Positions 9,636-27,657 of a stretch of DNA of 64,000 nucleotides are shown here, one piece after another. Within the stretch, counting starts at the first letter, position 1, and every line of letters begins with the position of its first letter. The position numbers and the translations under genes were made by a program. The stretch is from Anaerolineales bacterium. GTDB taxonomy: Bacteria; Chloroflexota; Anaerolineae; Anaerolineales; UBA11579. Where the stretch lies: positions 67,718-131,717 of the forward strand of contig JAJTXV010000005.1 in assembly GCA_021463845.1 (NCBI GenBank), in the 5' to 3' direction. The notes below the pieces were generated by a model. It ran no database searches. It was not told the origin of the DNA and saw only the letters and a program-made list of their open reading frames with translations.

Positions 9636-12307
<2,672 letters not shown>

Positions 12308-12308
<1 letters not shown>

Positions 12309-12748
12309 CAGGATGCTCTCACTTTCGGTAACGTCACAGTCAAAAATCCATCTTGGTAGGCAGCTTGAATGCGGTCGGTATTCACTTCACCCGGCAGCTG
12401 CACGGCGCTGAGGAATTCGCCAAAGCGCACTTCCATTTGGTAATAGGCGGCCTGTTCGGCCGGCTGCTGGCGCAGCCCGTACACCGCCATCTCGCGCCCC
12501 TCGATGGCAATGTTGAGCTCGGCCTCCTGCATGCCGGCCACCTCCACGCGCACCACGTAGGCCTGCTCGGTCTCGAGCAGGTCCGTGGGCGGGCGCCACA
12601 GGTGCGGCCGGGCCGCCCACTGGCGTGAGATGGCCGTCAGCCGGAATCGCACTTCCTGGGGGTTACCCCAGGCAGAGCGAGCGGTCAGTTTGTCTATTTC
12701 GGTTTCGTGCATGTACTGCGATGGCGTGCCCCGGTCAGGAGGCAGCAC
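12308..12748 (-). CDS. Hsp20/alpha-crystallin family small heat-shock protein
   Basis: The alpha-crystallin domain reads [23 protein letters not shown]...[16 protein letters not shown]...[13 protein letters not shown]. The stop overlaps the lon start. The start is uncertain (alternative ATG near 12712). Confidence 0.8.
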
Positions 12749-12775
12749 ACTTGCGCTGCGGCCGGGCCGCCGGCT

Positions 12776-13300
12776 TTAGGAAGCCAGGGCGGCCTTGGCG
12801 GCTTCCAGCACGGCAGCATAGTCCGGCTGGTCACCCAGGGCCTTCATGTAATCAGCGTAGGTTACCTTGCCCTTGCGGTCAACCACAAACACGGCGCGGC
12901 GCAGGATACGGCGGTCCTTGATCAGGGCGCCATACGATTCGCCAAAATTGGTGTCGTACGCGTCTGAATACGTGGTGACGCGTTCCACACCGTGCGCGGC
13001 GCACCAGTTGCTGAGCGCATACGGCAGGTCAGTGCTAACGGTGACGATCGCAATGTCAGGGTCCAGCGAGGCGGCTTCTTCATTGAAGCGCTTGGTCTCG
13101 GCCTCACACACGCTGGTATTCAGCGAGGGGACGGCCGCAATAATACGCACCTTGCCTTCGGTAGCTTTCAGCACATCCACCACTGTCCAATCCTTGGCGC
13201 GCAGCGTAAATTCAGGCGCCTGTTGGCCCACTTCAATATCGGGGCCTACAATGGTGACATCCTGCCCTGCCAGTTGCAATAAACCGTTACGTTCCATCAT
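12776..13300 (-). CDS. tpx: thiol peroxidase (atypical 2-Cys peroxiredoxin)
   Basis: 174 aa. The segment AVPSLNTSVCEAETKRFNEEA carries the peroxidatic Cys. Length and layout match Tpx. Confidence 0.9.
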   Translation of the reverse strand: MMERNGLLQLAGQDVTIVGPDIEVGQQAPEFTLRAKDWTVVDVLKATEGKVRIIAAVPSLNTSVCEAETKRFNEEAASLDPDIAIVTVSTDLPYALSNWCAAHGVERVTTYSDAYDTNFGESYGALIKDRRILRRAVFVVDRKGKVTYADYMKALGDQPDYAAVLEAAKAALAS

Positions 13301-13429: not shown

Positions 13430-14623
13430 ATGCGCACCTTATCCTGGTGGCAACACCTCCTGCTGGCCGTGCTGGCTACCCTAGCGCTCTTTGCTATTTT
13501 CACTGTCTTTCAAATGCGCCTGCCCGACCCGGAGGCTTTCAGCCCGCAGGTGTTCTTCGTGGCGGCGGCCCTGCTGCTGGCTGGCACAGTGCGCATGGGG
13601 CCGCACCCGCTGCGCTGGGTGTACTGGCTGATCACTGGCTTGTGCATCTTCATCTTTCTGGACGAGATCGCCTACGGCGTGGAGCTGCTGGACTTCCAGC
13701 CCATCTACATTGAGCGTTACAACTTCTATATCCGCGATCTTCACAGCTCGATCGGCTCCCTGAGCGGCGTGCTGCAGGAGTGGCTGCCAGAGGCCGGGTG
13801 GAACCCGGCGCTGTTCGCTATCCTGATGCGCATCAGCGCCGGCGTGGGTCTGGGCCTGCTGGCGGTGTGGGCGCTGGCCCGCCACGGGCTGCAGGCCGCC
13901 AAGGAGGCGGCCTGGCAGGCGCGCATCCTGCGCCTGACGCTGTGGGCCAGCCTGCTCACCAGCCTCATCACGCTCGGCTATCTATTATGGCTGCCGGCTG
14001 ACCCCAAGAATGCGTTCCTGTTCGGCTTCTCACCGGCGCGCCTGACGGTAGTGGCCGGGCTAGCGCTGGCGGCAGCCCTGGCCGCCTGGCTTCTGCAGCA
14101 GCCAGCACGCTGGCCCGCCTTGCAAGCCCGCATCAGCGCTGTGCTGGGGCGGTATGCCCTGCTCGCCAGCCTGCTGCTGGCGGCGGTGGCGCTGGGCGGG
14201 TTGTATTACCAGATCGACGCCAGCTTCCATTTCCTGCCGGATGATCTGGTGCGCCTGCAGCGTATGATGCCGCCCGTGTTGTGGGCCATGGCGCAAGCGC
14301 TATTGCTCTGGCTGGCCGTCCAATTGTGGACCGGCCGCCTGCGCACGCCGGTCATTACGATGCTGCGCGATACGCAGCAGGCCTTTCACCAGCACCCTGC
14401 TTTCGTCTACGTGGCCTTTGGCCTGCTGGTGATCTTTGTAGCCCAGCTGATCGACCAGAACCTGCTCCCGCTGGACGATATGCTCTACACGCCCAACTAC
14501 CGCATCCAGCATTGGGCTGGTTGGACCGAGGAGACGCTGGAGATGATCGGCGCGTTCTTGTTCCTGATCGCGGCCTTCCTGGTGCCAGGCAAGCCTGCCC
14601 AACAAAAAAGCAGCCGCACGTAG
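13430..14623 (+). CDS. polytopic membrane protein, unknown function
   Basis: 397 aa with about 10 hydrophobic helices. I recognise no motif. Confidence 0.55.
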   Translation: MRTLSWWQHLLLAVLATLALFAIFTVFQMRLPDPEAFSPQVFFVAAALLLAGTVRMGPHPLRWVYWLITGLCIFIFLDEIAYGVELLDFQPIYIERYNFYIRDLHSSIGSLSGVLQEWLPEAGWNPALFAILMRISAGVGLGLLAVWALARHGLQAAKEAAWQARILRLTLWASLLTSLITLGYLLWLPADPKNAFLFGFSPARLTVVAGLALAAALAAWLLQQPARWPALQARISAVLGRYALLASLLLAAVALGGLYYQIDASFHFLPDDLVRLQRMMPPVLWAMAQALLLWLAVQLWTGRLRTPVITMLRDTQQAFHQHPAFVYVAFGLLVIFVAQLIDQNLLPLDDMLYTPNYRIQHWAGWTEETLEMIGAFLFLIAAFLVPGKPAQQKSSRT

Positions 14624-14637
14624 CGGCTGCTTTTTTT
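14604..14637. terminator. bidirectional Rho-independent terminator between convergent genes
   Basis: aaaaaa-gcagccgc(14610-14617)-acgta-gcggctgc(14623-14630)-ttttttt. It serves the + gene ending at 14623 and the minus-strand Ubl operon ending at 14653. Confidence 0.75.
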
Positions 14638-14652
14638 ATTCTCCGAAATCCA

Positions 14653-15789
14653 CTAGTCTTTCAGTTTGATACGCGGCCGCTTGCCGAAGGGCTTGCGGCG
14701 CGGTTTCCCGGCGCCCGCCTTCGGATTGGCCGCCCCCTGCCCCTGGCGCACCGCGCCAACGATCAGCGGCACGGCCACCAGCAGCGCCAGCACTCCCACG
14801 ATGGCAGCGAACTGCGGCCTGGCCGCAGGCTGCTCAACCTCGGGCACCAACCCACCCGGATTATAGCGTTCACCACTTTCCGCCACCGGTTCCCCGCCGC
14901 CGGCAGGCGCTAACGTCACACTGAGCGAGCGATTCACGCCGTCACGCAGCGCAGCGGGCGAAATGTAGCTGAGTTGGTATTCACTCTGCAGCGCATACGA
15001 GTAGCTCTCGTACAGCCGGGTCAGGCTGTCTTCATCTTCGACGTAGCCATACTGCCCGCCGGATTGCGCCGCCAAGTCTTGCAGGCCGGGCTCGTCAATA
15101 CCGCTCATGCGGTCGCCGCCCGGCGTGCCCAGCCCCACCGTGGAGATCGAGGCGCCTTCGTTCTGCACGCGGGCCACCACATCCGGCGCGGCCCACTGGC
15201 TGGAGTTATCCAGGCCATCGGTCAGCACGATGATGGCCTTGCGGCCCTGTACGCCTTCCAGTTCATCCAGCGCGGTCATCAGGGCATTGAACATGGCGGT
15301 GTCATCATCGCCCCGCAGACTGTCGATGGCGCTATGCAGCGCGGCCTGATCAGAGGTCAGCCCCTGCACCACCTGCACCTGCGTGTTGAACGAGATCAAG
15401 CCGCTCTGATCCTGCGGGCGCATGCGCTCCACGAATTGGTGCGCGGCCGCCTTGGCCGAATCCAGCTTGCCGTCCGGGTTCATGCTGCCGGAGACATCCA
15501 TCACCAGCATGGTGGTCAGCGCTTCCACTTCGCCAACCCCCTGGATCTGGTCGAGAGCGATAGGCTGGCCGTTCTCCATGATGACAAAGCGGCTCGGGTT
15601 GACCGGATAGGGGTTTCCGTCCGCGTCCGTCACCGAAACGAAGAACGTGACCCGCGGGAACTGCGAAGTGTCCACCTGGGTGATGCGTACTTGCAGGCCC
15701 TCCTCCTGTGCCAGCGGCGCGAAGGCCAGGCCGGACAGCAGATTGAGCGCCAGAATGAGTCCAAGCGTTAAACGAGTGAGTTTGTGCAT
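14653..15789 (-). CDS. secreted/membrane-anchored von Willebrand factor A (vWA) domain protein
   Basis: N-terminal signal peptide (LTLGLILALNLLSGLAFA). The MIDAS motif is MDVSGSM, followed by LTDGLDN. A C-terminal TM helix FAAIVGVLALLVAVPLIVGAV precedes the basic tail ...KRPRIKLKD. Confidence 0.85.
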   Translation of the reverse strand: MHKLTRLTLGLILALNLLSGLAFAPLAQEEGLQVRITQVDTSQFPRVTFFVSVTDADGNPYPVNPSRFVIMENGQPIALDQIQGVGEVEALTTMLVMDVSGSMNPDGKLDSAKAAAHQFVERMRPQDQSGLISFNTQVQVVQGLTSDQAALHSAIDSLRGDDDTAMFNALMTALDELEGVQGRKAIIVLTDGLDNSSQWAAPDVVARVQNEGASISTVGLGTPGGDRMSGIDEPGLQDLAAQSGGQYGYVEDEDSLTRLYESYSYALQSEYQLSYISPAALRDGVNRSLSVTLAPAGGGEPVAESGERYNPGGLVPEVEQPAARPQFAAIVGVLALLVAVPLIVGAVRQGQGAANPKAGAGKPRRKPFGKRPRIKLKD

Positions 15790-15791
15790 GC

Positions 15792-16649
15792 TTACCTCTT
15801 CTCGTGATAGACAAGTTGAGTGTTACCGACGCGGATAGCCTGCTCATCCAGCAAGCGGGCCTGCTCCACCTTGCGCCCGTTGATGAAAGTGCCCTTCTGG
15901 CTCATGTCGCGAATATTCATGTGGGTGTCGCCGCCGCTCAGCATGGCGTGCTGCGGGTCAATGTCAGGGTCAGGCAGCACAATGTCTGCCTTCAGGGCGC
16001 TGCTGCCCACATAGGCGGTAGGCCCATTGGCATGGATGAATTTGTCGAGCACGAACTCAGTGCCTTTGAGCTTGCCGCTCACCACTTCCAGCCAAGCCTT
16101 CGAAAGCAGCAGTACCACCAGCGCGATCAGCGCACCGATGGCGGCGCCCAGCAGGCCCAGGCCGATGGCCTTGCCAATGAGTGCATCCGCCAGGCGCGCC
16201 CGCGCCAGCTCCAGCAGGGCGCCGCCTACTGCGCCGCCCAGCAAGCCGCCCAGGGCGGGCTTCCACATCTGCGCCCCGCTGCTGAAACCCAGCCCGGCGC
16301 CGATGAAGCCGCCGAACACCGCCCAGCCCAGCGCGCGAGTCCAGGCTTCGCCGCCCAGGGTTTGGAAGGCGGCCTCCGCCAGCGGCAGGCCAATGGCGCC
16401 GCCCACCAGGCCGAACAGGCCGTTGGTCAGGCCGGCCCGCACCGCATAACCTGGGCTGCGCAGGGCGGCGCCTTCGCTCATGCCGATCAGGCTGCCGATG
16501 CAGAAGCCGATCAGCCCACCCACCACGACTTCACTGAGATAGACGTTCTGGGTGAACGACAGGCCCAGCACATTGCTGACCTGCCAGCCGATCAACCCGC
16601 CGATCGCCCCCAGCAGGGTGTAGTAATACAAACGTGTCATCCGGTTCAT
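15792..16649 (-). CDS. glycine-zipper membrane protein with C-terminal FHA domain
   Basis: The N-terminal ~190 aa are Gly-rich TM segments (GxxxG repeats). The C-terminal FHA domain reads YVGSSALKADIVLPDPDIDPQHAMLS...GTFINGRKV...IRVGNTQLV. The start overlaps the JAB stop (ATGA). Confidence 0.8.
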   Translation of the reverse strand: MNRMTRLYYYTLLGAIGGLIGWQVSNVLGLSFTQNVYLSEVVVGGLIGFCIGSLIGMSEGAALRSPGYAVRAGLTNGLFGLVGGAIGLPLAEAAFQTLGGEAWTRALGWAVFGGFIGAGLGFSSGAQMWKPALGGLLGGAVGGALLELARARLADALIGKAIGLGLLGAAIGALIALVVLLLSKAWLEVVSGKLKGTEFVLDKFIHANGPTAYVGSSALKADIVLPDPDIDPQHAMLSGGDTHMNIRDMSQKGTFINGRKVEQARLLDEQAIRVGNTQLVYHEKR

Positions 16650-17614
16650 TGTTTGTTCTCCGTTTGGGGATCGTGCGCAACCGGAGGCTGCGCGGGAGTT
16701 TTCGTCTCAGCCTGAGACTTTGTCTCAGCTTTGGGATGTGCGGGAGGCTTGACCTCAACGCGGGGCTTTGACTCTGCCTGAGGCTTCGCCTCAGGCTTGC
16801 GGGCCGCGTCCGCCTGCGGCTTGCGAGCCGCGGGCGTAGCCGTCACGGTTTTCACCTCGACCGGGCGCGTATCCGAGATCTCTGCGCGGCTGGGCTGAGG
16901 CTTAGGGCTGGCCGGCGGCTGCGCCGCCGCTGCAGCCGGTTTTGGCTGCGGCTCAGGCCGCAAGTTAGCCCAGTCCACCACGCTGTCCATGCTGCTGGAA
17001 TGCAGCTCGTAGAAGCCGCTGTAGCGGCGCGGCGACAGCTCGCCATCCTTACGCATGAACAAGCCGGCCTGGCGGGTATGCGGCTCGACCACCAGCGCCA
17101 CCTGCCAGGGCTGCGGAAAGAAGTGATCGTGCAGCCAGGTGTCATAGCCTGAAAGAAAAATGCCCATGCGCGGGTGGGTGTGATACCAGCCCACCACGCA
17201 CTTGTTCTCATACTGCTCTTCGAGGGCTGAGAGCATCGCCACCTGGCTGTCATGTGTAAAGGTAAGGAAGGTGCTGCCTGAGCGCACTTGCTGCGCCGGC
17301 AGCAGAGCTTCCACCACCACGAACTCCTTGCCAGCCCGCCCATCCCGGCACCAGCGCCCCGCCAGCCAGCCGCCGACCTCGTTGTCCATGTCACTGGCGG
17401 CGTGCAGCGCGATGGTCTTGATCACGCTCTGCGTGAAGAAGACCGGCAGCGCCGGCTGGGCGCTGTCCTCGCCTGCCGCCAGCCAGCGTTGGGAGCGGCT
17501 CAGCGGCAGGCGGGCACGGCGCGGGGCGCCGAGCGGGTTTTGCAAACCCTGCGGCTTCTTGGAGGCGGAGGTGGATGTGCTCATGGCATTGGCCTTGCGC
17601 TGCCGGGTGGCCAT
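16646..17614 (-). CDS. JAMM/MPN+ metalloprotease (JAB deubiquitinase-like) with Pro/Lys/Ala-rich tail
   Basis: The Glu lies in NEVGGWLAG. GWYHTHPRMGIFLSGYD gives H-x-H-x7-S-x2-D, the complete JAMM motif. The C-terminal ~110 aa are low complexity. Confidence 0.9.
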   Translation of the reverse strand: MATRQRKANAMSTSTSASKKPQGLQNPLGAPRRARLPLSRSQRWLAAGEDSAQPALPVFFTQSVIKTIALHAASDMDNEVGGWLAGRWCRDGRAGKEFVVVEALLPAQQVRSGSTFLTFTHDSQVAMLSALEEQYENKCVVGWYHTHPRMGIFLSGYDTWLHDHFFPQPWQVALVVEPHTRQAGLFMRKDGELSPRRYSGFYELHSSSMDSVVDWANLRPEPQPKPAAAAAQPPASPKPQPSRAEISDTRPVEVKTVTATPAARKPQADAARKPEAKPQAESKPRVEVKPPAHPKAETKSQAETKTPAQPPVAHDPQTENKQ

Positions 17615-17648
17615 GTTGCGAATGCAACATGGCCACCCAAATCAGCAA

Positions 17649-17915
17649 TTACCCGGCGGTGACGTCAGCCGTGATCATCAGGCGGTCGTCGGCGGGGACA
17701 CCGGCGGCCTCCAGGGTCTCGTCTTCCTTCAGCTCGCGGCCCAGGGCCTTGCTGTCCAGACGGTAGCCCATCGGGCGGCCGTCAGGACCGGTGGTGGGCA
17801 GCTCCAGCGTGGTGGCCAGCTCCGGGATCAGTTCCTTCACTTCCACATCATTGGGCACCTCAGCGGTGCGGCTGCCCCCAGACGGCAAAACTACGGTCAC
17901 AGGAATGTCAGGCAT
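17649..17915 (-). CDS. free ubiquitin-like beta-grasp protein ending ...TADVTAG-stop
   Basis: 88 aa with an AAGGAG RBS upstream. The strand/helix pattern is beta-grasp-like (IPVTVVLPSGGSRTAEVPNDVEVKELIPELATTLELP...). It is a paralogue of the N-terminal domain of the adjacent E2 fusion, and its terminal residue is Gly. Confidence 0.8.
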   Translation of the reverse strand: MPDIPVTVVLPSGGSRTAEVPNDVEVKELIPELATTLELPTTGPDGRPMGYRLDSKALGRELKEDETLEAAGVPADDRLMITADVTAG

Positions 17916-17950
17916 GTCTTAATCTCCTTTGCGTCTAGCAAAAATTTGGA

Positions 17951-18802
17951 TTACTTCAACTTGATGCGCGGCTTCGGCTTCGCCGAGGCGGGCGTCTTCT
18001 TCAGATGCACACGCTCCGGGCGCAAAAGCTCACGCGTATCCACAGGGAAGAATTTGGGATTCTTTTTGCGGTAGCCGCGGCTCCAACGGGCCGCCTCGGC
18101 ATCCCAAGGGAAGGGCGGCTTGGTGGGGTCATCGTGAAAGTTCTTGTACTGCACCATCTCGCCGATCATCAGCACCAGGCGGTCCAGCGAACGGCTGGCG
18201 GTCCACCAGGCTGCATCCACACACACTGTGCCATTCAGATGGTTGATGTTGGGGTGCCACACCGGCGTCAGCCACTTCATGCCCGGCCAGCGCTGCGGAT
18301 ACTGGTTGTGCAGATAGATCTCCACCTGGTGCTTGTCTCCCAGCATGGGCTCGCCTTTGTGATTGACCGCGATCACGCCTTTGCACTTATAGGTGACGAT
18401 GTAGGTCTCGGGCGGCATTTTTGGATTGGCCGAGATGGCCTTGAACTCGATGAGATCGCTCTGCGCGGCCAGCTCCTGCATGCGCTGCAAGTCCGCCTTC
18501 AGACGGCGGATGCGCGGGCTCTCGCCCAGCTTGACCGCGCCGGCGGTGATGTCCGCCGTCAGGATCAGGCGGTCCTCGGCGGGCACTTCTGCGCTCGCCA
18601 GCGTCTCGGTTTCCTTCAGCTCGCGGCCCAGGGCCTTGCTGTCCAGCCGGTAGCCCATCGGGCGGCCGTCTGGCCCTACCGTGGGCAGGCCGAGCAGCGA
18701 GATCAGCTCCACCACCAGCTCACGTACCGGGGCATCATCAGGCAGCTCGGCTTTGCGAGCGCCGCCGTTTGGCAGGATGATGGTCAATTCGATATCAGCC
18801 AT
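17951..18802 (-). CDS. Ubl::E2 fusion (N-terminal ubiquitin-like domain + UBC-fold ubiquitin-conjugating enzyme)
   Basis: Residues 1-87 resemble the free Ubl and end TADITAG. The E2 core is YLHNQYPQRWPGMKWLTPVWHPNINHLNGTVCVD, i.e. the eukaryote-type HPN triad plus the catalytic Cys. A GAGGAG RBS lies upstream. Confidence 0.9.
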   Translation of the reverse strand: MADIELTIILPNGGARKAELPDDAPVRELVVELISLLGLPTVGPDGRPMGYRLDSKALGRELKETETLASAEVPAEDRLILTADITAGAVKLGESPRIRRLKADLQRMQELAAQSDLIEFKAISANPKMPPETYIVTYKCKGVIAVNHKGEPMLGDKHQVEIYLHNQYPQRWPGMKWLTPVWHPNINHLNGTVCVDAAWWTASRSLDRLVLMIGEMVQYKNFHDDPTKPPFPWDAEAARWSRGYRKKNPKFFPVDTRELLRPERVHLKKTPASAKPKPRIKLK

Positions 18803-18819
18803 ACAATGCTCTCCTCAAC

Positions 18820-19683
18820 TCAATTCTGGAAGGCGTGCGGCACCTGGCACACGCCCGTGATCTCCCAGCAGTCTGCGTGGTGCCAGGTCTTGCAGACCTT
18901 GCAGATCTTGACGCCGCGCGGGTCGCGCTTGGTCACCGGCTCCAGGCAGTAGGGGCACATGTGGCGTTCCTGCGCGCTGAGCGTGATGCCGCTGCCGCGG
19001 GCCGCACGCTTGCGAGCCGGCCGCGCCGAGCGGATCTTGCGCGTGGTTGGCGTAGGCGTAAAGAACTTGGATATCCCAGCCCGAGCACGTTGCGCGAACG
19101 AAGGGCGCGCTGCACTGCGCGGTTGGCCGCGGCTCGGCTGCCGGCTGCGCGCCCGTGGCGCAGCCGGCGCAGAGCCAACGCTGACGCGCGGCCGGGGCGC
19201 AATGTTGACTTCTACGTCTACCTCCCCGCGCGGTTCCACCATCACGGTGCGGCGGCGCGGCGCCCAGGCCGCCTGGCCCGCGCCCACCGCCAGGCCCATG
19301 ACCAGCAGTTGAATGGCGGCATCCAGCGGTGTGGCGATGGCATAGCTGCGCAGCAGGTTCAGGCCCACGAAGCCCAGGGTCAGCGGGCTGAGCACCGCCA
19401 GGGCGATCAGCCCGGCGAAGGCGGCCGTAGCCGCCCGCAGGGCCGGGCTGCGCCCGGCCAGCACCCGGCGGCTCATGAAGCTGGCCGCCAGGCCGATGCC
19501 GATAATGACAACGAACTTGAGCAGGAACGGCGAGAAGCTGGTGGGCAGCACGAACAGCAGGGTCAGGCCCAGCCCCACCAGGGTGGCAAACAACACACAC
19601 AGGGTGATACGCCCAAGCGCGCTGTCTACGAACTTGCTTTCATCTCCCAGTAAAAATCGTCTCATCGCTACCGCTTGCATCAT
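18820..19683 (-). CDS. four-TM membrane protein with C-terminal RING/PHD-like zinc finger (putative E3)
   Basis: Four hydrophobic helices are followed by an Arg/Pro-rich linker. The finger is CPYC-x14-CKVC-x3-HH-x2-C-x6-C-x3-H (eight-ligand cross-brace pattern), matching my recollection of the TM-linked prokaryotic RING family (Pfam Prok-RING_1). Confidence 0.8.
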   Translation of the reverse strand: MMQAVAMRRFLLGDESKFVDSALGRITLCVLFATLVGLGLTLLFVLPTSFSPFLLKFVVIIGIGLAASFMSRRVLAGRSPALRAATAAFAGLIALAVLSPLTLGFVGLNLLRSYAIATPLDAAIQLLVMGLAVGAGQAAWAPRRRTVMVEPRGEVDVEVNIAPRPRVSVGSAPAAPRARSRQPSRGQPRSAARPSFAQRARAGISKFFTPTPTTRKIRSARPARKRAARGSGITLSAQERHMCPYCLEPVTKRDPRGVKICKVCKTWHHADCWEITGVCQVPHAFQN

Positions 19684-19686
19684 GGC

Positions 19687-21306
19687 TTAGTCGATCAGGT
19701 GCACCCGGCCGCTGGCCTGTGCTTCGCCCTGCACCGCCTCGCCCAGGCGCACGCGCGGGGCATGCAGGCCAGGCACGGCCTCATCAAAATCGTTGAAGTG
19801 CAGCGCGGTGGGCAAGTCACCGCTCAATTCATAGAAACGAAATTCTGCGCCATTTGTAGCGCGCACAATATGCAGCGGCGGCACCCCAACGCTGGCCAGC
19901 GTGCGCTCCAGGAAGTCTTCGCGGCCGGTGATGGTATGGGTCAGGTCAACCTCGCGCATCTCGCCGCAGCTGGGGCAGTGTCCTGCTTCGAAGCTCACGT
20001 CTGACAGCGGCTTGAGCACATGCTCCACCGTGTTGCAGGCGGCGCAATTGAGCGCCAGCACCAGCTCCTGATCCAGCTCCAGCACCGTGTCCGCCCCCAG
20101 GTCGCCGCGGGCGATCTCAAGCAGCTCGGCCAGCGTGTTGGCCTCGGCGCGCAGCGGCAGCTCGGTCACATCGCCATAGATCCAGTGGCTCTCGCACTCC
20201 GCATCCGGCAGGTAGGCGGTGGTGTGCATGAAATTGGTGTAGCCGTTGTAGTGCAACACCTTGCCCGGCTCGACCGGCATGTTGTGGATCAGCTTGAGCG
20301 CCTCTTGCGATTGCATCGCGCCGATGATCGAAGCGATCGTCGGCGTGGTGGGCACCTTGCCCAGCAGAATATTCTGGCGCGCCAGCAGCGGGCAGGAGTA
20401 GCGCATGGCCAGGTCACGGCGGGCCTGCTCGGTCAGCGTGCATTCAAAGCACGCGCCTTCGCCAGGCACAAAGACGCGCGCCAGGCCGAGCAGTTCTTGA
20501 ATTGCGCCATCGACCCACGGCTTGTTCATCCAATGCGCAAAGCGGTTGACCGCCAAGCGCGCCTCGCGGTTGTCCAGACAGCCCACGATGACGTCCATGC
20601 GGCGGAACACGCCCAGGCCAATATCGGTGGTGACGTCGCCGTGCAGGTACTGCACGCGCACATCCGGGTTGATCTCCACTGCCCGCGCCGCGGCCAACTG
20701 GGCTTTCTCGCGGCCGCGATCTTTCTCGCGGAACAGAATCGAGCGGCTCAGGTTGGCCGCTTCCACTTTGTCAAAGTCCACAATGTACAGATTGCCGATG
20801 CCCATCAGGGTCAGATTCTTGATGACCTCGTTGCCCAGCGCCCCGGCTCCCACCACCATCACACGGGCGTTCTGCACCTTCTCGCGCTCCCACCAACTGA
20901 TGAACTCGAAGGTGCCCAAACGGTCAGACTTGAGGTTGGGGATGTGCAGCGGTTTCTCTTTGGCCACCGGCAGCCGCTTGGGGCCGTCGGCCGCTTTGCG
21001 CTTCTGCGCCCACTTGGCGGGCGCGGGCGGCGCAACCTCGGCCGCCAGTTGGCGCGCCTTGAGCATGCGCGCCGAGCTCAGCTCATTTACGAACCAGCCC
21101 ACGCCCTGCTGCGCATCCAGCAGCCCGGCTTCGGAAAGGATCTTGAGCGCCTCGCGCAGCGAGGAGCGCCCGACCCCCAGCTCCTTGATGAGGTCACGCT
21201 CAGCTGGCAGCTGGCTGCCGGCCGGGTATTGGCCCTGCAGCAGGCCGGAGGCCAGGCGGCCGGCGACAAGTTCGGGGACGGATTTGCGCGGGATGGAATT
21301 GGGCAT
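19687..21306 (-). CDS. GntR-type winged-HTH fused to ThiF/E1-like ubiquitin-activating (adenylating) enzyme
   Basis: The N-terminal segment LPAERDLIKELGVGRSSLREALKILSEAGLLDAQQGVGWFV is a GntR HTH. The E1 core includes VMVVGAGALGNEV, VDFDKVEAANLSRSILF and LDNREARL. There are CxxC pairs (CFEC, CAAC, CPSC), a candidate catalytic Cys in RYSCPLL, and a possible C-terminal UFD-like domain. Confidence 0.9.
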   Translation of the reverse strand: MPNSIPRKSVPELVAGRLASGLLQGQYPAGSQLPAERDLIKELGVGRSSLREALKILSEAGLLDAQQGVGWFVNELSSARMLKARQLAAEVAPPAPAKWAQKRKAADGPKRLPVAKEKPLHIPNLKSDRLGTFEFISWWEREKVQNARVMVVGAGALGNEVIKNLTLMGIGNLYIVDFDKVEAANLSRSILFREKDRGREKAQLAAARAVEINPDVRVQYLHGDVTTDIGLGVFRRMDVIVGCLDNREARLAVNRFAHWMNKPWVDGAIQELLGLARVFVPGEGACFECTLTEQARRDLAMRYSCPLLARQNILLGKVPTTPTIASIIGAMQSQEALKLIHNMPVEPGKVLHYNGYTNFMHTTAYLPDAECESHWIYGDVTELPLRAEANTLAELLEIARGDLGADTVLELDQELVLALNCAACNTVEHVLKPLSDVSFEAGHCPSCGEMREVDLTHTITGREDFLERTLASVGVPPLHIVRATNGAEFRFYELSGDLPTALHFNDFDEAVPGLHAPRVRLGEAVQGEAQASGRVHLID

Positions 21307-21334
21307 GGTGTGGGCGGCTCTTTATTGTGGTTTG

Positions 21335-21347
21335 TTGGTCAGACCAA
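21335..21347. promoter_or_regulatory. perfect palindrome TTGGTC-A-GACCAA, candidate GntR/FadR-type operator
   Basis: It lies 29-41 nt upstream of the E1-fusion start codon, in the divergent intergenic region. It matches the generic GntR operator form (GT-Nx-AC) and the TGGTC.GACC core known for FadR. Confidence 0.45.
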
Positions 21348-21460
21348 TATACCACGCCGCCCTATCAAGTCAATACAGCTTAGCTTTCAATTCTGTCAGC
21401 CACTAGGCTGAGAGGAATTGGCAGACCGCGAACGTTACGCTATTCACAAACGGAGGGACT

Positions 21461-22411
21461 ATGAAGATCGTTCTGGCAGGCGGCAGCGGACAGGTCGGCA
21501 CCTTGCTGGCCCGGCACTACCACGCCAAAGGCGACGAGGTGACGGTACTGACCCGCCGCCCCACCACGATGCCCTGGCGCACCGCACACTGGGACGCCGA
21601 GACCCTCGGTCCCTGGGCCCAGGAGCTGGAGGGCGCCGACGCAGTCTTCGGCCTGGCCGGCCGCAGCGTGAACTGCCGCTACACGCCCAAGAACAAACGC
21701 CTCATCATGGATTCGCGGGTAGATTCCACCAGCGTCCTCGGCCAGGCGATCGCGCAAGCCACCCGCGCGCCGCGCGTGTGGATCCAGGCGAGCACTGCCA
21801 CCATTTATGGCCACAGCTACAACCGTCCCAACAATGAAGACGGCGCCCTAGGCGGCGAGGAGCCGGACGCGCCGCATGCCTGGCGCTTCAGCATTGATGT
21901 CGCCAAAGCCTGGGAGCAGGCCGCCGACGCGGTCGAAACGCCGCGCACCCGCAAGGTCATCACGCGCACCGCCCTGACCCTCAGCCCGGACCGCGGCGGC
22001 ATCTTCGACACCCTGCTGAGCCTGGTGCGCCGCGGCCTGGGCGGCCGGGTGGCCAGCGGCCGCCAGATGGTCTCGTGGCTGCACGACGCTGACTACATCG
22101 CCGCGGTGGATTGGCTGATAGCCAACCAACACATGAGCGGCATCGTCAACCTGGCCGCGCCCAACCCGCTGCCGATGGACGATTTCATGCGCACCCTGCG
22201 CCGCGCCTGGGGCATGCCCATCGGCCTGCCCTCCACCCGCTGGATGCTGGAGATCGCATCATTCTTGATGCAAACAGAAACGGAGCTGATCCTCAAGAGC
22301 CGCTATGTGCTGCCCGGCCGCCTGCTGGCCGAAGGCTTTGAGTTCCAGTATCCGCTGTGGCCTATTGCGGCTGAGGACTTATGCACGCGCTGGCGAGCAA
22401 GGTCTATGTAA
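21461..22411 (+). CDS. SDR-fold epimerase family protein (YfcH/TIGR01777-like, DUF1731 C-terminus)
   Basis: MKIVLAGGSGQVGTLLARH is a Rossmann GxxGxxG motif. The protein is 316 aa, with a GGAGGG RBS upstream. Confidence 0.8.
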   Translation: MKIVLAGGSGQVGTLLARHYHAKGDEVTVLTRRPTTMPWRTAHWDAETLGPWAQELEGADAVFGLAGRSVNCRYTPKNKRLIMDSRVDSTSVLGQAIAQATRAPRVWIQASTATIYGHSYNRPNNEDGALGGEEPDAPHAWRFSIDVAKAWEQAADAVETPRTRKVITRTALTLSPDRGGIFDTLLSLVRRGLGGRVASGRQMVSWLHDADYIAAVDWLIANQHMSGIVNLAAPNPLPMDDFMRTLRRAWGMPIGLPSTRWMLEIASFLMQTETELILKSRYVLPGRLLAEGFEFQYPLWPIAAEDLCTRWRARSM

Positions 22412-22626: not shown

Positions 22627-23043
22627 TCATTCAGCCGGCAGCACCGGGCGGATGCCGCGGTACACCCGGGCGCCCGAAATCGTGCGCAGGATCGTCTGCG
22701 CCGGGCGGCCGAGCTGCTCGCCCAGCTCTTCGGAGCTGAGCGGCTGGTTGCCGTTCATCAGGAAGGCGCGGAAGATGCTTTCCACCAGGGATACGCCGTC
22801 CTCGTTGCCCTGGCGAGCGTAGTGGCCCATCAGCAAGAATTGCAGAATATTGACGCGCTTCACTTCAGCGGTGGCCGGGTCGACCCAGTCCACCTGCTCC
22901 TCGCCGCTGATGTCGGCCAGGCTGGCTTCCTGTTCGCTGCCCAGCAGGCCGCGCAGGTACACGCGCCACTCGCGGTCATTCTCGCGCCACCAGTCGAAAT
23001 CGATCTGGAACGGCGTATCGGCCATGGGTTTGATCAGGCTCAT
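22627..23043 (-). CDS. hypothetical protein (138 aa)
   Basis: Protein-like composition. It overlaps the upstream 521-aa gene by 4 nt. No motif recognised. Confidence 0.55.
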   Translation of the reverse strand: MSLIKPMADTPFQIDFDWWRENDREWRVYLRGLLGSEQEASLADISGEEQVDWVDPATAEVKRVNILQFLLMGHYARQGNEDGVSLVESIFRAFLMNGNQPLSSEELGEQLGRPAQTILRTISGARVYRGIRPVLPAE

Positions 23044-24605
23044 TCGGCTGCCTCCGCATTGCGGAAGTGCAGATGGCCCACGTGCTCAAAACGAGCGTCG
23101 CTGGCCAGCAGCGCCAGGATGCGGCCCGGCGGGCAGCGCAGGGTCAGGTTGACGGCCGAGTACACCTCGGCGGCGTGCACGTTGCCCTGCAGACTCAGCT
23201 TGGCCAGCTCCTTCAGCGTCTGGGCCACAACACTTTCCAGGCCGGCAGGCTGGTTGGCGCGCTTCTCCCAAATGGCGTCGATCGCGGCCATCTCGCCGGG
23301 CAGATGGATCATCATGCGCTCGTCAAACGCGCCGTTGACCTGCTGCTTCAGCGTAGCGTACACTACGCCGCCGTCCGCCCCCACCAGCGCCGTGCGCACC
23401 CACTCCTTGCTGGAGCGGTGCGCATCGCTCGAGACGATGATCTCGCCCGGCTGCTCGCCGCGGCGCAAGCGCACCAGGCTGCCCGGCATCAGACCGTGCT
23501 TGGCCAGCCACTCACGCAGGCCATAGATGTAACGCTGCGGGCGCACCACCCAACCGGGGAAGGTCTCGCCGCTCTTTTCGTCAATAAAGGTGAAGCGCAC
23601 GCGGGGCGACTCGATGGCGCTGGGGAACAGCTTGGCCATCTTGGGGGTCAGCGGCAGGCTGCCGACCCGCCAATGCGGGAATATGAGCGCCACATCCACC
23701 ACTTCGGGGGCATTGTCATCCAGCAAATTATGGAAGGACAGCTCATCGTCCAGGCTGCGCACCAGGTCGCGCATGTCTTCGCTCAGCGGGCTGGGGTCAA
23801 AGCCCACCGGCGTGTAGCGCAAATGCACGGGCACTTTCTGCACCGCATCCGGCTCCAGGCGGCGCAGGAACCAGGCCACTTCGCCGGTCGAGCCGACTTC
23901 GTCGAAGCGGTCGTCGTGCTGCAGGGCCAGGTCCAGCGAGAACTCGGCCAACTTGGGGTTGACCCCATCCGGCAGCTCGACCTCGCCCAGCAGTTGGCTG
24001 GTGGGCAGCGGGCCGCCGCCGGCCATATCCAGGATCGCCTCGGCCACATTGAGCTGGCCGGGGTCTACGTCAACAATGAGGGCTTTGGGGAACCAGCGGC
24101 CGGCAATGTACACAAACTCCGGGCTGGATTGCAGCGCTTCCACCAGCACCGGCAGGATCTCTTTGGCATGCTGCTTGCCCTCGGCCATCGCATCCACCTC
24201 GCCGCCCTCCTGCTTGGGCGGGTCGTTGAGGGCATGCTGTGCCAGGCGGGCGGCGAACTCCCGCGTGCTGCCGTCTTCCATCGCCACGCTGATGACCTCG
24301 AAGCGATCGCCGCTCAGCACAGCCGCCGGGCGCACGGCACTCACCCGCCCGCCGGCATTCTTGAGCGCGGGGAAGTAGACCTTATCGCCCGCGGCATAGG
24401 TTTCCTTGGGCAGGTAGGCCTTTTCGGCTTCGCCGTCTTTGGGCTGCGGGCGCGGGTTGGTGATGCGGTTGGCGATCAGCTGCACCGCCAGCGCCTCCGG
24501 CCCGAGGGGAGTCTCATGCTCCAGCAGGTATGCGGACAGAAACTCGAGATCTGCGTCTTCGATGGAGAAGTTTTGCCAGTCGATGGGGTCTGTGCTTACA
24601 AACAT
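23040..24605 (-). CDS. hypothetical protein (521 aa)
   Basis: Long ORF with balanced amino-acid composition. The antisense ORF (23067-24650) is Arg/Ala/Gly-biased. The C-terminal ~70 aa (...AEVYSAVNLTLRCPPGRILALLASDARFEHVGHLHF) loosely resemble a winged-helix (HARE-HTH-like) module; this is weak. Confidence 0.6.
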   Translation of the reverse strand: MFVSTDPIDWQNFSIEDADLEFLSAYLLEHETPLGPEALAVQLIANRITNPRPQPKDGEAEKAYLPKETYAAGDKVYFPALKNAGGRVSAVRPAAVLSGDRFEVISVAMEDGSTREFAARLAQHALNDPPKQEGGEVDAMAEGKQHAKEILPVLVEALQSSPEFVYIAGRWFPKALIVDVDPGQLNVAEAILDMAGGGPLPTSQLLGEVELPDGVNPKLAEFSLDLALQHDDRFDEVGSTGEVAWFLRRLEPDAVQKVPVHLRYTPVGFDPSPLSEDMRDLVRSLDDELSFHNLLDDNAPEVVDVALIFPHWRVGSLPLTPKMAKLFPSAIESPRVRFTFIDEKSGETFPGWVVRPQRYIYGLREWLAKHGLMPGSLVRLRRGEQPGEIIVSSDAHRSSKEWVRTALVGADGGVVYATLKQQVNGAFDERMMIHLPGEMAAIDAIWEKRANQPAGLESVVAQTLKELAKLSLQGNVHAAEVYSAVNLTLRCPPGRILALLASDARFEHVGHLHFRNAEAAE

Positions 24606-24994: not shown

Positions 24995-27655
24995 TTACGA
25001 AAACTTCAGAGGCTCCAGAGCCACCAAGTCTTCAAATTCATCCGGCTTTAGCTTGGTAAATTCCTCTTGCAAAATTTTGTGAAAGACCCACTGGGTTGCT
25101 GTTAACTTTGAGGCGTTTTCGCACCAAGCAATTGCGGCGCGATCTTTATGCTGCACGTCCAAATCTTCTCGCCCCTTGGTCTCAATTAGGTGATGGACTC
25201 CATCTTTCGTTACCGCAACAAAATCCGGATGATAAGCCCTTAGATTCGCTCGGCTATCAATGTACGGAATCGAAAAGTGCAAATAATCTTCCGAAAGCTT
25301 TGCAAAGCTAACCACTTCGCTCGCTCCTTCAAGAAATCGGCAAAAGTCATATTCGAATGTATTGCCAGCCGCGCATAAATTGAAGACTGTTTTATTGGCT
25401 TTAAGCGTGGACTTGCTCCAGGGAAAAGGCTCAGTAGAGGAAACAGGCAGACCGTCGTTCTCTAGCTGAGGCTCATTCTGCTGCACAACCCGTTCCCGGA
25501 GAACTTGCACAAATGCCTTTTCGGTAACAAACTCTGCCACGCCGCTGGAAATAGCCTGTATCATTTGAGGAGTATCGAGGTCAACTTTTTCGCCAAAAGC
25601 GTAGTCTTGGAGAAACTCGCGTATCTTCGGCACTAAGGCCGCAAACTGCGAAGGCAGCTTAAGTGTGGATGCAATCCGCTTGGCATAGTAGCCAATGACT
25701 TCCTGAGAGGTACCTACCTCCGGAATTTTGTATTCCCGTTCAATCATTTTTTGAAGAGTAATAATGTCATAGCCCTCGTAGCGGAATAATTTCGCCGCTT
25801 CATCATCCTGCTTCTTGGGCAAGGTAGGAACACTAATTTTGGAGACATCCAGGGCAGCAATCTCGTCAGTCAATGTAGTTTTGCGGGTCAAGATAGGCGA
25901 AATCACAGGGAGGACGATGTCTCTGTCTAGTTTTTTAGGGTCGGGATAAATACCCTCAATTTTGGGAGGCTCTTTGTCCAAATCAACGGTATCGAATTCA
26001 AGGCCCTCAATCTTTTCGAGGTCTTCGACGAACTTGATGAACTTGTCGTTGCCAATTACGTCCAACGTCTCCTGATAAGTGCTTTCCTCACCCACTCTGG
26101 CGCCGCGGAACATGAGGCGCAGCCCACGGCCGATTGCCTGCTCAGGCAAGATGTTCGCCTTCGACGTATAAGGTCGCAGCCCCACGACCACTGTTACGCT
26201 TTGTACATCCCAGCCTTCGCGCAGCATAAGTACGCTGACTACACAGTTGACCGGGCTTTTGGGATCATCAATTTCTTTCGCGATAAGGCGGGCTTCTTCT
26301 ACGTCTTTTTTTCTAACTTCGCCAGTAGTGTCGGTATGGATAACGCTCAACTTATCGCCGCCAAACTCATCGGGGTATTTGCTTCTTAGATAATCTCCCA
26401 CTTCGTCCGCATCAGCTACGCTGTTCATCATAATGAACAGCACAGGCTTGCGGCGGAAACCCATCAGCTTGTCGCGGTATTCCTGCCAGCGCTTAACGCC
26501 CGCGGTAAGGTACATCTGATACTTTTGGCTGGCTATGTCAGAACGGCGCTCTCGCAAACCCTTCGCGACTCCCTTGAACGGACGTTTGACAACGCGATCC
26601 ATAATAGCTTGCTTCAGCGGGTAGTCATAAACCGTCCATGGAAACAAGGCGCCTTTAGAAAACCGCGGAGTAGCAGACATGTCCAGTTGCACTACGCCGG
26701 GTTGCTTTTTGGCTTCCAGTCCTTCGTGCAGTCGCCGAATGGTGCGGCTCCATTCGCTATCTTCTTCATGTGTATGGTGAGCCTCATCATTGGCTACCAG
26801 CACTCTATTGCCACGTTCCAAAACACGCTCAAAAAACGGATCCGGCTCGTCCAAATTCGGCCGCGGTTTTGGGCCAAGCACACTTTGCAGCGCGTCCGGC
26901 TCCGCATCTGGCCTGCTACGAGCTTCATATAGCTGTTGAATATTGGTTACATACAGCGCCCCTTGCGAATGGGCGCGTTCAGGCTCACCACGCATGTAGC
27001 TCTGGTGATCCCAGTAGATTCGTAACTCCGGGGGGATTACCGGATCCTGGGTGAAAATCCGCCCTCCCTCGAAATCATTTTTAAGACGCTCAAAAACAAT
27101 GACGTTAGGCGCGATCAAGAGCGTGGTTGCGGCAAAGCGAGCCGGGTCTTCCACGGCGTTAAAGTACTGCCAAGCGATGGCCAGAGATATGACCTTGGTC
27201 TTGCCCGTCCCGGTCGCCAGCTTGAGGCAGTAGCGCGGGAATAAATCATATTGAAGCAATCTCAGGTCTTTTTGGGTGGAGTAGCTCTCAATCAATTCTT
27301 TGGAGCGGAACTTCCCAGCGACCTCATACAGGTAAACAATGGTTTCAATGGCCTCGCGTTGAAAGGGATGGTAGCTAAACCGTTGCCCATTCGGGAGAAA
27401 GTGGTCGTTGAAGAACCAGTGATTAAGCAGCTTTTCTGTTGTATCTGTAATGCCGGGATAATCTCGTTTGCGCCATTCCTGGACGGCCTCTTGAATTTTT
27501 GGTACGCACGGCGCAGTAGTCACCTCGGCAGTGAACATCTTGCCCTGTGCCGCGGCAGGCTTTGCCTTGCGTACAGCCTTCTTGCGCATCGGTGCCGCCT
27601 TGGGAATTGCACGCTTGGCTTTTGCTTTTGCCTGCTTTGCCTTCTTCTTCGCCAT
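24995..27655 (-). CDS. type III restriction enzyme Res subunit (SF2 helicase + PD-(D/E)xK nuclease)
   Basis: 886 aa. Walker A is LATGTGKTKV, DEAH box is VANDEAHH, and a helicase C motif is LREGWDVQSV. The C-terminal nuclease motif is YHPDFVAV...HLIETKGRED. The gene is AT-rich relative to its flanks and lies directly downstream of the methyltransferase gene. Confidence 0.85.
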   Translation of the reverse strand: MAKKKAKQAKAKAKRAIPKAAPMRKKAVRKAKPAAAQGKMFTAEVTTAPCVPKIQEAVQEWRKRDYPGITDTTEKLLNHWFFNDHFLPNGQRFSYHPFQREAIETIVYLYEVAGKFRSKELIESYSTQKDLRLLQYDLFPRYCLKLATGTGKTKVISLAIAWQYFNAVEDPARFAATTLLIAPNVIVFERLKNDFEGGRIFTQDPVIPPELRIYWDHQSYMRGEPERAHSQGALYVTNIQQLYEARSRPDAEPDALQSVLGPKPRPNLDEPDPFFERVLERGNRVLVANDEAHHTHEEDSEWSRTIRRLHEGLEAKKQPGVVQLDMSATPRFSKGALFPWTVYDYPLKQAIMDRVVKRPFKGVAKGLRERRSDIASQKYQMYLTAGVKRWQEYRDKLMGFRRKPVLFIMMNSVADADEVGDYLRSKYPDEFGGDKLSVIHTDTTGEVRKKDVEEARLIAKEIDDPKSPVNCVVSVLMLREGWDVQSVTVVVGLRPYTSKANILPEQAIGRGLRLMFRGARVGEESTYQETLDVIGNDKFIKFVEDLEKIEGLEFDTVDLDKEPPKIEGIYPDPKKLDRDIVLPVISPILTRKTTLTDEIAALDVSKISVPTLPKKQDDEAAKLFRYEGYDIITLQKMIEREYKIPEVGTSQEVIGYYAKRIASTLKLPSQFAALVPKIREFLQDYAFGEKVDLDTPQMIQAISSGVAEFVTEKAFVQVLRERVVQQNEPQLENDGLPVSSTEPFPWSKSTLKANKTVFNLCAAGNTFEYDFCRFLEGASEVVSFAKLSEDYLHFSIPYIDSRANLRAYHPDFVAVTKDGVHHLIETKGREDLDVQHKDRAAIAWCENASKLTATQWVFHKILQEEFTKLKPDEFEDLVALEPLKFS

Positions 27656-27657
27656 CC

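Follow-up and report, generated by a model that had tools for sequence, protein, structure and literature searches.

A seven-gene operon conserved in Anaerolineae and predicted to encode a membrane-assembled ubiquitin-like conjugation system

Results

Gene content and conservation of the operon

We analysed a stretch of 64,000 nucleotides (nt) from an Anaerolineales bacterium of the phylum Chloroflexota (GenBank assembly GCA_021463845.1, contig JAJTXV010000005.1, positions 67,718 to 131,717 of the forward strand), which is called the window below. Seven open reading frames (ORFs) on its minus strand, between positions 14653 and 21306, form one tight gene run whose products resemble the parts of a ubiquitin-like protein (Ubl) conjugation cascade, namely an activating enzyme (E1), a conjugating enzyme (E2), a RING-type ligase (E3), a free Ubl and a JAMM protease, together with two further membrane proteins carrying FHA and vWA domains. 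The genes are transcribed in the order E1-RING-Ubl::E2-Ubl-JAB-FHA-vWA. From the vWA side to the E1 side the intergenic gaps are 2, -4, 34, 35, 17 and 3 nt, and the stop codon of the JAB gene and the start codon of the FHA gene overlap as ATGA (the junction reads caATGAac). A first-pass annotation, made by a model from the letters of the sequence, had described these seven minus-strand genes with gaps of -4 to 35 nt and the ATGA overlap; its coordinates match every ORF exactly, and the gaps and the overlap were confirmed in the sequence. The Pfam families ThiF, YukD, UQ_con, JAB, FHA and VWA_2 were all matched among the seven proteins, which are as follows (lengths in amino acids, aa; TM, transmembrane; HTH, helix-turn-helix):

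19687-21306, minus strand: GntR-HTH::E1 fusion, 539 aa; Pfam ThiF 7e-54 and GntR 4e-17
18820-19683, minus strand: four-TM RING protein, 287 aa; possible true start at Met7 (19665)
17951-18802, minus strand: Ubl::E2 fusion, 283 aa; YukD 9e-10 and UQ_con 4e-11
17649-17915, minus strand: free Ubl, 88 aa, ending in ...TADVTAG-stop; Pfam YukD 2e-12
16646-17614, minus strand: JAMM/MPN+ metalloprotease, 322 aa; JAB and Prok-JAB, both 3e-8
15792-16649, minus strand: multi-TM FHA protein with Gly-rich helices; Yop-YscD_cpl 7e-12 and FHA 1e-9
14653-15789, minus strand: vWA protein with signal peptide and C-terminal TM helix, 378 aa; VWA_2 2e-19

Among species-representative genomes, 321 stretches encode a relative of the E2. 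The best 80 of these matching stretches, taken from one-genome-per-species GTDB contigs, make up the related loci used throughout, and the ortholog alignments comprise 58 RING, 65 E1, 44 Ubl::E2 and 74 free Ubl sequences. The seven-gene order is held in 80 of 80 loci as far as the contig reaches, the exception being one lineage without the vWA gene, and the seven architectures are also present in independent gene calls with precomputed Pfam domains. Such an arrangement is far beyond chance. The neighbourhood proposed in the first-pass annotation, with the FHA and vWA membrane proteins as members, was thus recovered across the related loci; its description of such neighbourhoods as sporadic does not apply here, as the system is common to the whole lineage. 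By their labels, 79 of these 80 loci belong to Anaerolineales, Anaerolineae or Chloroflexota, and the last one is an 'Eisenbacteria' bin that may be misbinned. At the protein level the E2 has 1883 homologous clusters, of which the best 120 are 74-100% identical to it and, where named, come from metagenome-assembled genomes of Anaerolineales or Chloroflexota, and the Anaerolineae E2 family is one cluster at 50% identity.

Across the 80 loci, identity to the window protein is 77-98% for the Ubl, 69-94% for the E2, 60-95% for the E1, 48-97% for the FHA protein, 42-85% for the vWA protein, 42-73% for the JAB protein and 27-82% for the RING protein. Lon, in the loci that also carry it, is 79-92% identical to the window copy, and the comparable identities of Ubl, E2 and E1 indicate that these evolve about as slowly as Lon. 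Flanking genes are kept only among the closest relatives. An eighth conserved gene was looked for around the 80 loci and none recurs, the largest recurrent neighbour family being a generic ABC ATPase (14 of the 80 loci). Several loci directly follow nusG-rplKAJL, and in the window Prx-HSP20-Lon follow the operon. A search of a phage collection found no copy of the operon, and a plasmid search gave no close copy, the only match being a distant (30%) E1-Ubl-Ubl-E2-JAB operon in Crinalium. Taken together, this points to a module under constraint that is passed on vertically, and not to a mobile island.

The Crinalium match lies on the mobilizable plasmid pCRI9333.03 of Crinalium epipsammum (locus L081, 6239-9716) and reads E1, an 82-aa Ubl-like protein, an 85-aa weak YukD match, E2 and JAB. 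It has no RING gene, its E1 is without a GntR domain, and a type IV coupling protein gene adjoins it.

E1, Ubl, E2 and JAMM proteins

The domains and residues of the predicted cascade enzymes are located as follows:

21088-21267, minus strand: GntR domain of the E1, aa 14-73; Pfam GntR 4e-17
20194-20904, minus strand: ThiF adenylation domain of the E1, aa 135-371; Pfam ThiF 7e-54
20392-20394, minus strand: candidate catalytic Cys305 of the E1 in RYSCPLL, 100% conserved in orthologs
18539-18802, minus strand: fused Ubl of the Ubl::E2 protein, aa 1-88, ending in TADITAG; YukD
18053-18520, minus strand: UBC core of the E2, aa ~95-250, HPNINHLNGTVC; UQ_con
18221-18223, minus strand: E2 Cys194, invariant in 44 orthologs
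17126-17431, minus strand: JAB domain of the protease, aa 62-163; Pfam

The E1 has a single ThiF domain (Pfam) and three CxxC pairs, and all nine Cys residues and the GntR domain are conserved in the 65 orthologs. In a search against all solved structures its best relatives were the eukaryotic UBA7, Uba1, UBA5 and SAE2 (8.5e-32), with ThiF and MoeB scoring well behind them (about 1e-20 to 1e-16). We accordingly place it among E1-class adenylating enzymes with a conserved candidate catalytic Cys, whose catalysis is predicted. In the Ubl::E2 fusion, UQ_con scores 43 bits against a cut-off of 27, the closest solved structures of the core are UBE2K (2e-9), UBE2N and UBE2D in an alignment that spans WHPNI...G.VC.D, and residues H183, P184, N185 and C194 are invariant in the 44 orthologs, so far as sequence can tell a UBC-fold E2 with HPN motif and catalytic Cys.

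The free and the fused Ubl share 60 of 88 residues (68%). The free form ends in TAD[VI]TAG-stop in all 74 orthologs and Lys56 is invariant; with this end the protein is translated in mature form. A PDB sequence search gave no match for the Ubl. For the AlphaFold 2 (AF2) model of Ubl::E2, fold comparison returned Caldiarchaeum ubiquitin as the nearest fold (29-30% identity, TM-score 0.66-0.75), followed by SUMO, UBX, ubiquitin and the bacterial BilA (8tyx); all of these fold matches concern the Ubl half only. In the fused Ubl the TADITAG junction is likewise invariant and is followed by a variable linker, and distant Ubl::E2 fusions keep a [TVI]-A-G-[AS] junction. Kaur et al. 2020 proposed that JAB releases the Ubl from similar Ubl::E2 fusions (PMC7159879), and the conserved TAG junction suggests such a cut after the Gly here.

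The best solved relatives of the JAB protein are AMSH (5e-8), a Caldiarchaeum Rpn11-like protein (3.5e-7), Rpn11 and CSN5. Its HTHPxxxxxxxSxxD stretch is conserved in orthologs, and by its E...HxHx7SxxD signature the protein is assigned to the JAMM/MPN+ peptidase class. The eukaryotic type of E1 and E2, the beta-grasp nature of the Ubl and the JAMM/MPN+ protease had all been claimed in the first-pass annotation and agree with these family, structure and fold matches. The JAB protein ends in a low-complexity tail of ~100 residues (aa about 220-322; 16646-16960) that is rich in Pro, Ala, Lys and Glu, specific to the lineage of the window and missing from more than half of the orthologs (median length 222 aa). 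A 24-nt tandem repeat lies inside this tail region at 16787-16832.

The RING protein

Two parts of the RING protein were located:

19267-19620, minus strand: TM helices, aa 22-139; AF2 model
18835-18963, minus strand: C-terminal binuclear finger, aa 241-283; eight ligands

The finger carries the pattern given in the first-pass annotation, C-x2-C-x14-C-x2-C-x3-HH-x2-C-x6-C-x3-H, whose ligands (C243, C246, C261, C264, H268/269, C272, C279 and H283) are invariant in the 58 orthologs; 56 of these match Prok-RING_1, the best at 2e-8. The AF2 model of the protein has a mean predicted local distance difference test (pLDDT) score of 77, with four confident TM helices and a disordered basic linker. The finger itself is modelled at a pLDDT of about 90 as two short hairpins and a helix, with the H-x2-C ligand pair at the N-terminus of the helix, and in this model it would fit a cross-braced treble clef.

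Promoter and operator-like palindrome

Upstream of the E1 gene there are two elements:

21346-21373, minus strand: sigma-70-like promoter TTGACT-16-TATATT with extended TG, 10 of 12 consensus positions
21328-21353, no strand: operator-like palindrome, with core TGGTCTGACCA (minus-strand reading) at 21336-21346

The promoter is the sole promoter-like site within 14300-21500, and a comparable TTGAC..TATAAT arrangement is present in many related loci. The palindrome core adjoins the -10 box, about 30 nt 5' of the E1 ATG, and is flanked by outer arms GGTAT / A(A/T)ACC that are conserved in related loci. In the 1.07 Mb of related-loci DNA that we scanned, exact TGGTCNGACCA occurs 54 times, compared with about one occurrence expected by chance, and each occurrence is upstream of E1, one per locus. 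Of 68 loci, 54 have the exact core and a further 8 differ from it at one position (62 of 68 in total). It conforms to TKGT-N3-ACMA, the consensus of FadR-subfamily GntR regulators (PMC4494728).

The N-terminal GntR HTH of the E1 (Pfam 4e-17) had been overlooked in the first-pass annotation. Its best NCBIfam matches are NanR, LldR, GlcC, FadR and PdhR, and the GntR+ThiF architecture is also found in independent gene calls with precomputed Pfam domains (loci L082 and L084). Like FadR-subfamily regulators, the protein has an N-terminal winged helix and a palindrome of their consensus at its promoter; those regulators usually carry a ligand-binding domain, in whose place the E1 adenylating enzyme stands here. 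We know of no described GntR::E1 fusion. Because a GntR domain occurs together with one conserved palindrome per locus upstream of E1, autoregulation is suggested, and repression of the operon by its own E1 would be the obvious reading. The operon fits the FadR-type, GntR-autoregulated class by its sequence features, with operator binding as a prediction. ThiF-type enzymes are homodimers, and a homodimeric fusion would offer two winged helices to the promoter-overlapping palindrome.

FHA and vWA membrane proteins

The domains of the last two proteins are the following (MIDAS, metal ion-dependent adhesion site):

15810-16088, minus strand: cytoplasmic FHA domain, aa 188-280, non-canonical; Pfam FHA
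15010-15513, minus strand: vWA domain, aa 93-260, with intact MIDAS; Pfam VWA_2
14749-14814, minus strand: TM helix of the vWA protein, aa 326-347; hydropathy

Canonical FHA domains contact the phosphate through Arg (GR), Ser (SxxH) and Asn (NG). In the alignment to GarA and Rv1747, the phosphothreonine-contact motifs GR, SRxH and SxNG are replaced in the operon protein by GS, DPQH and SQKG, and the replaced residues are themselves conserved in orthologs. The protein has 1665 homologs, nearly all of exactly 285 aa. With its contact residues replaced, the domain was rejected as a canonical phosphothreonine binder, while the fold-level FHA match stands; the phospho-dependent sensing that an FHA component had implied is not supported. 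The vWA protein matches TIGR03436 at 89 bits, above the cut-off, and its MIDAS residues DxSxS, T and D are conserved in orthologs. Its vWA domain is probably outside the cell. The gene is present in 72 of the 80 loci and missing from the L084/L085 lineage. In this divergent lineage of Anaerolineales the operon has six genes, ends at FHA and retains the C-terminal motif of E1 and E2 described in the next section.

A YukD-family Ubl encoded with an FHA membrane protein (YukB) is also known from the type VIIb secretion system (T7SSb) of Bacillus, where YukD binds FHA domains non-covalently as a permanent subunit of the membrane machine and the FHA domain acts without phosphothreonine (PMC12637312). 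The YukD-type Ubl of the operon might in the same way be mainly a non-covalent assembly factor with the FHA protein, which E1, E2 and JAB would modulate or mature. The YukD Pfam family of the Ubl, the stabilisation of a membrane machine by YukD without conjugation (PMC12637312) and the non-canonical FHA domain of the operon speak for this. However, the YukD of T7SSb is without E1, E2 and E3, whereas the window Ubl exposes its Gly and is encoded with every component of a cascade. The invariant Ala-Gly end is conserved jointly with the E1 Cys, the HPN/Cys of the E2, the JAMM site and the eight RING ligands, a pattern that is difficult to account for unless a thioester cascade operates, and no EssC/WXG100 secretion genes are nearby. 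We regard a mainly non-covalent role as highly improbable.

A shared C-terminal motif

The motif [RK]-[IV]-x-[LIF]-x-[DK] terminates the E1, the E2 and the vWA protein, in the last case at the end of its cytoplasmic tail:

19690-19707, minus strand: C-terminal motif RVHLID of the E1
17954-17968, minus strand: terminal RIKLK of the E2, which has a further tail motif, ERVHLKK
14656-14673, minus strand: end of the vWA-protein cytoplasmic tail, RIKLKD

The E2 ends in ...PRIKLK, the vWA protein in ...PRIKLKD and the E1 in ...GRVHLID, with GKIKLKD in relatives. Ends of the form [RK][IV]x[LIF]x[DKGSE] were counted in 54 of 76 E1, 68 of 81 E2 and 52 of 69 vWA proteins. Only 2 of 418 background ORFs end in this way; the other four families have 0-1 such ends, with no case among RING, Ubl and JAB proteins. 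Frequently another copy precedes the terminal one by 12-15 residues. The motif is kept by the E1 and E2 of the vWA-less lineage and in E2 relatives of 35-48% identity, at times in 3-4 copies or in an acidic version that resembles a SUMO-interacting motif (SIM), for example DDFEIVILDDDEDFDIVVLR in the distant relative P0343.

The alternating aliphatic residues suggest that the motif docks as a strand on a common partner, for which the Ubl (in SIM-like manner) and the non-canonical FHA domain are candidates. The FHA domain is a candidate because three distant E2-family representatives are E2::FHA fusions, YukD binds FHA domains and the phosphothreonine-binding residues are lost. Docking on the vWA protein was rejected, since the E1 and E2 motifs persist in the vWA-less lineage. 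A role as acceptor-lysine site was rejected as well, because the Lys is not conserved and E1 versions such as RVHLID have none. A C-terminal degron is another possible reading. In the RING protein, aa about 232-240 (GITLSAQE; 18964-18990), just before the finger, lie in a region where basic residues and then [IV]-x-[LF]-[ST] are retained by orthologs (AVYLS, KVSIA, HVHLT); this could be the motif's fourth occurrence, here in an internal position.

With three of the seven proteins in the membrane, basic and partly hydrophobic C-terminal motifs on E1, E2 and the vWA tail, and a Ubl that ends in a single Gly as Atg8 and Atg12 do, the Ubl could be attached to a non-protein acceptor at the membrane, for instance an envelope precursor or the head group of a lipid, much as Atg8 is joined to phosphatidylethanolamine, with the TM-RING protein and the basic tails placing E1 and E2 at the bilayer. 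However, the E2 has the HPN oxyanion motif of lysine-directed UBCs, and the operon is without Atg3/Atg7/Atg12-5-16-like components. Simple binding to anionic lipids would not fit the acidic tail versions (P0343), which also weaken the reading of the motif as a plain polybasic membrane anchor. We consider a lipid-type acceptor very unlikely.

Genomic surroundings and the wider E2 family

Downstream of the operon on the same strand, Lon, HSP20 and peroxiredoxin are encoded at 9636-13300. This linkage is seen only in ~10 closest relatives and is probably local synteny, not functional coupling to proteolysis. The minus-strand gene at 7392-9242 has a product of 616 aa that matches a Schlafen AlbA_2 domain and, weakly, a PHP domain. 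ORFs without an assigned domain, of 521 aa and 138 aa, lie at 22627-24605 (minus strand) and one of 397 aa at 13430-14623 (plus strand), the 521-aa and 397-aa ORFs being without a Pfam match. The 521-aa/138-aa pair upstream of the operon is kept in ~10 close relatives; in locus L001 the 138-aa ORF ends ~290 nt before E1, and in the window an epimerase gene (21461-22411, plus strand) lies between. The 397-aa ORF, convergent with the vWA gene, recurs in 5 loci at 34-43% identity.

Between about 24000 and 30000, GC content falls from about 0.64 to 0.49-0.54. Two large minus-strand genes of this stretch, at 24995-29730, encode an 886-aa ResIII/Helicase_C protein and a 690-aa N6_N4 DNA methylase, and the stretch looks like a horizontally acquired, restriction-modification-like island.

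The wider E2 family includes fusions to FHA (three), YukD-E2-YukD-TIR, TIR-JAB-E2 and YukD-TIR-JAB-E2 arrangements, and double zinc ribbons; distant E2 representatives with such fusions are P0357, P0373, P0383, P0350, P0382, P0385, P0342 and P0364. Judged by these domain combinations, the E2 family spans conflict-type and other architectures.

Discussion

Comparison with known systems

The closest characterised system is archaeal. The Ub/E1/E2/small-RING/Rpn11 operon of Caldiarchaeum subterraneum was reconstituted in vitro (PMC5654768), and structures of Rpn11 processing are available (PDB 6fnn/6fj7). It has the same five core activities as those predicted for the window operon, with E1 and E2 of eukaryotic type in both, and it is the only reconstituted prokaryotic E1/E2/RING cascade that we found in the searchable literature. 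The window system differs in being bacterial and lineage-wide, and in having a YukD-family mature Ubl, a second Ubl fused to the E2, the RING on a four-TM protein and two added membrane proteins with FHA and vWA domains; its E1 moreover carries a GntR HTH, with a candidate operator upstream of the E1 gene. The Caldiarchaeum system reportedly has a small soluble RING and a ubiquitin precursor that needs trimming.

Burroughs, Iyer and Aravind are said to have predicted bacterial Ubl/E1/E2/RING/JAB neighbourhoods by comparative genomics in 2011, and reportedly were the first to propose conjugation of YukD-like Ubls by systems of this kind. The window operon belongs to this predicted class, its RING orthologs being Prok-RING_1 members. 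In later papers such operons are portrayed as mobile and as 'rare' or 'sparsely distributed', and Chambers et al. call the RING-type operons 'rare' and uncharacterised, whereas the window operon is a fixed lineage feature. The literature to mid-2026 was searched for a bacterial RING-dependent cascade and for Anaerolinea together with ubiquitin, and no functional study was found; nor did the searchable literature hold a report of RING-dependent Ubl conjugation demonstrated in a bacterium. The novelty is limited, the class being already predicted, including YukD-like Ubls, Ubl::E2 fusions and RING E3s (Burroughs 2011; Kaur 2020). What distinguishes the present system is the lineage-wide conservation, the GntR::E1 with its candidate operator, the membrane RING with FHA and vWA partners, and the shared putative docking motif. 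The searchable literature gave no mention of the operator, of the C-terminal motif common to three of the proteins or of the degenerate FHA pocket.

Kaur et al. 2020 described Ubl::E2, E1, RING and JAB inside vWA-MoxR-FtsH conflict systems (PMC7159879). As in the window, these have a Ubl::E2 fusion, a separate E1, RING, JAB and vWA in the operon. However, their MoxR, double-AAA+ FtsH, EAD1 adaptor and caspase effector are all absent from the window operon, and MoxR, a double FtsH-type AAA+ protein and an EAD1-tagged Ubl and effector were found neither in the window flanks nor among the recurrent neighbours of the 80 loci. Their vWA is a beta-propeller fusion, whereas the window vWA protein is a membrane protein with intact MIDAS, and the window operon, unlike theirs, shows strong vertical conservation.

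Bil, type II CBASS (cyclic oligonucleotide-based anti-phage signalling system) and Bub share the E1-like/E2-like/Ubl/JAB-peptidase logic with the window operon but are without a RING E3. Bil has four genes, an E2 with a CEHH motif and an E1 inactive/active pseudo-dimer (PMC10557695, PMC11354881), whereas the window has a RING gene, an HPN...C E2 and a single-ThiF E1. Bub forms Ser/Tyr oxyesters, with a DUF6527 protein BubE and no catalytic Cys (PMC11601596); the window proteins gave no DUF6527 match in Pfam and their catalytic Cys residues are conserved. Type II CBASS requires a CD-NTase and an effector beside an E1-E2 fusion; neither CD-NTase nor effector is present in the window operon or flanks. 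PADLOC on the window gave no system-level match, only partial domain-level E1 and JAB matches to Cap2/Cap3 models.

A role in phage defence or conflict, as in Bil, type II CBASS or vWA-MoxR-FtsH systems, has to be weighed against this background; infection or envelope damage, sensed through vWA/FHA, would then trigger Ubl conjugation to invader or self proteins. Characterised bacterial E1/E2/Ubl/DUB systems are all defence systems (PMC10557695), and Kaur et al. 2020 place Ubl::E2, RING, E1 and JAB within vWA-centred conflict systems. The TIR- and JAB-fused members of the E2 family carry a signature of conflict systems, the low-GC helicase and DNA-methylase island lies 3.7 kb from the operon, and a distant relative is on a mobilizable cyanobacterial plasmid. 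Against a defence role stand the gene order fixed across the lineage, identities on a par with Lon that point to strong purifying selection, the housekeeping genes next to the operon and the lack of any match in the phage collection. Moreover, neither the operon nor its conserved flanks contain MoxR, FtsH, EAD1, a caspase or a TIR effector, and the PADLOC matches concern generic JAB and E1 domains only. We consider a defence system unlikely, and a housekeeping or regulatory role is most likely, as far as can be inferred from conservation and context.

Proposed mechanism

The operon probably encodes a Ubl conjugation system assembled at the membrane and passed on vertically within Anaerolineales and Anaerolineae. 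Besides the conflict-type fusions and the nearby island, several observations weigh against this reading. Prok-RING_1 scores 22.1 bits on the window RING copy, below the cut-off of 29.1. A comparison by Foldseek gave no significant match for the full-length RING model, in which the TM helices dominate, and the RING-domain profile found only marginal matches among PDB sequences, to the L37ae zinc ribbon (0.02) and the TRIM5 RING (0.024). For Ubl::E2, AF2 reached an average pLDDT of 65 with low confidence at the E2 active site, and the E2 assignment rests on sequence. Finally, the comparison of Ubl and tail charges across distant fusions gave no clear correlation (n=9, rho -0.24, p=0.53).

We propose the following sequence of events, in which the ATP-dependent thioester cascade, isopeptide conjugation and RING-E2 binding are predicted activities. 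A single promoter would drive all seven genes, and the E1, a homodimer through its ThiF domain as in ThiF/MoeB-type enzymes, would repress the operon by binding of its GntR winged helix to the FadR-type palindrome at the -10 box. The free 88-aa YukD-type Ubl with its Ala-Gly end would be ready to use, and the second copy, fused to the E2, would probably be freed by the JAMM protease at the ..TAG|A junction. The E1 would adenylate Gly88 and accept the Ubl on Cys305, from which it would pass to Cys194 of the eukaryote-type E2 (HPN). The four-TM RING protein would then position E2~Ubl on the cytoplasmic side of the membrane and direct the Ubl to lysines of membrane-proximal targets, and the JAMM protease would undo the tagging. 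The beta-strand-like tail motifs of E1, E2 and the vWA tail may dock meanwhile on their common partner, Ubl or FHA.

A more specific proposal, which is tentative and only possible at present, is that the system performs housekeeping Ubl tagging of membrane and envelope proteins as a counterpart of eukaryotic membrane-RING ubiquitylation (endoplasmic-reticulum-associated degradation, receptor down-regulation). The E1 would double as a transcription factor that couples the Ubl-charging state to expression, and the SIM-like strands on E1, E2 and the vWA receptor would assemble the cascade on a Ubl/FHA hub.

Conclusions

A complete predicted cascade with eukaryote-type E1, E2, Ubl and JAMM components is fixed across an abundant bacterial lineage, and several hundred species-level stretches together with thousands of metagenomic variants provide natural sequence variation for its study. 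If cultured relatives carry the operon, they would provide material for experiments, for which the GntR::E1 with its conserved candidate operator and the shared putative docking motif are concrete entry points. If the housekeeping role is true, membrane regulation by ubiquitin-like proteins would not be confined to eukaryotes and archaea, which would bear on the origin of the eukaryotic system.

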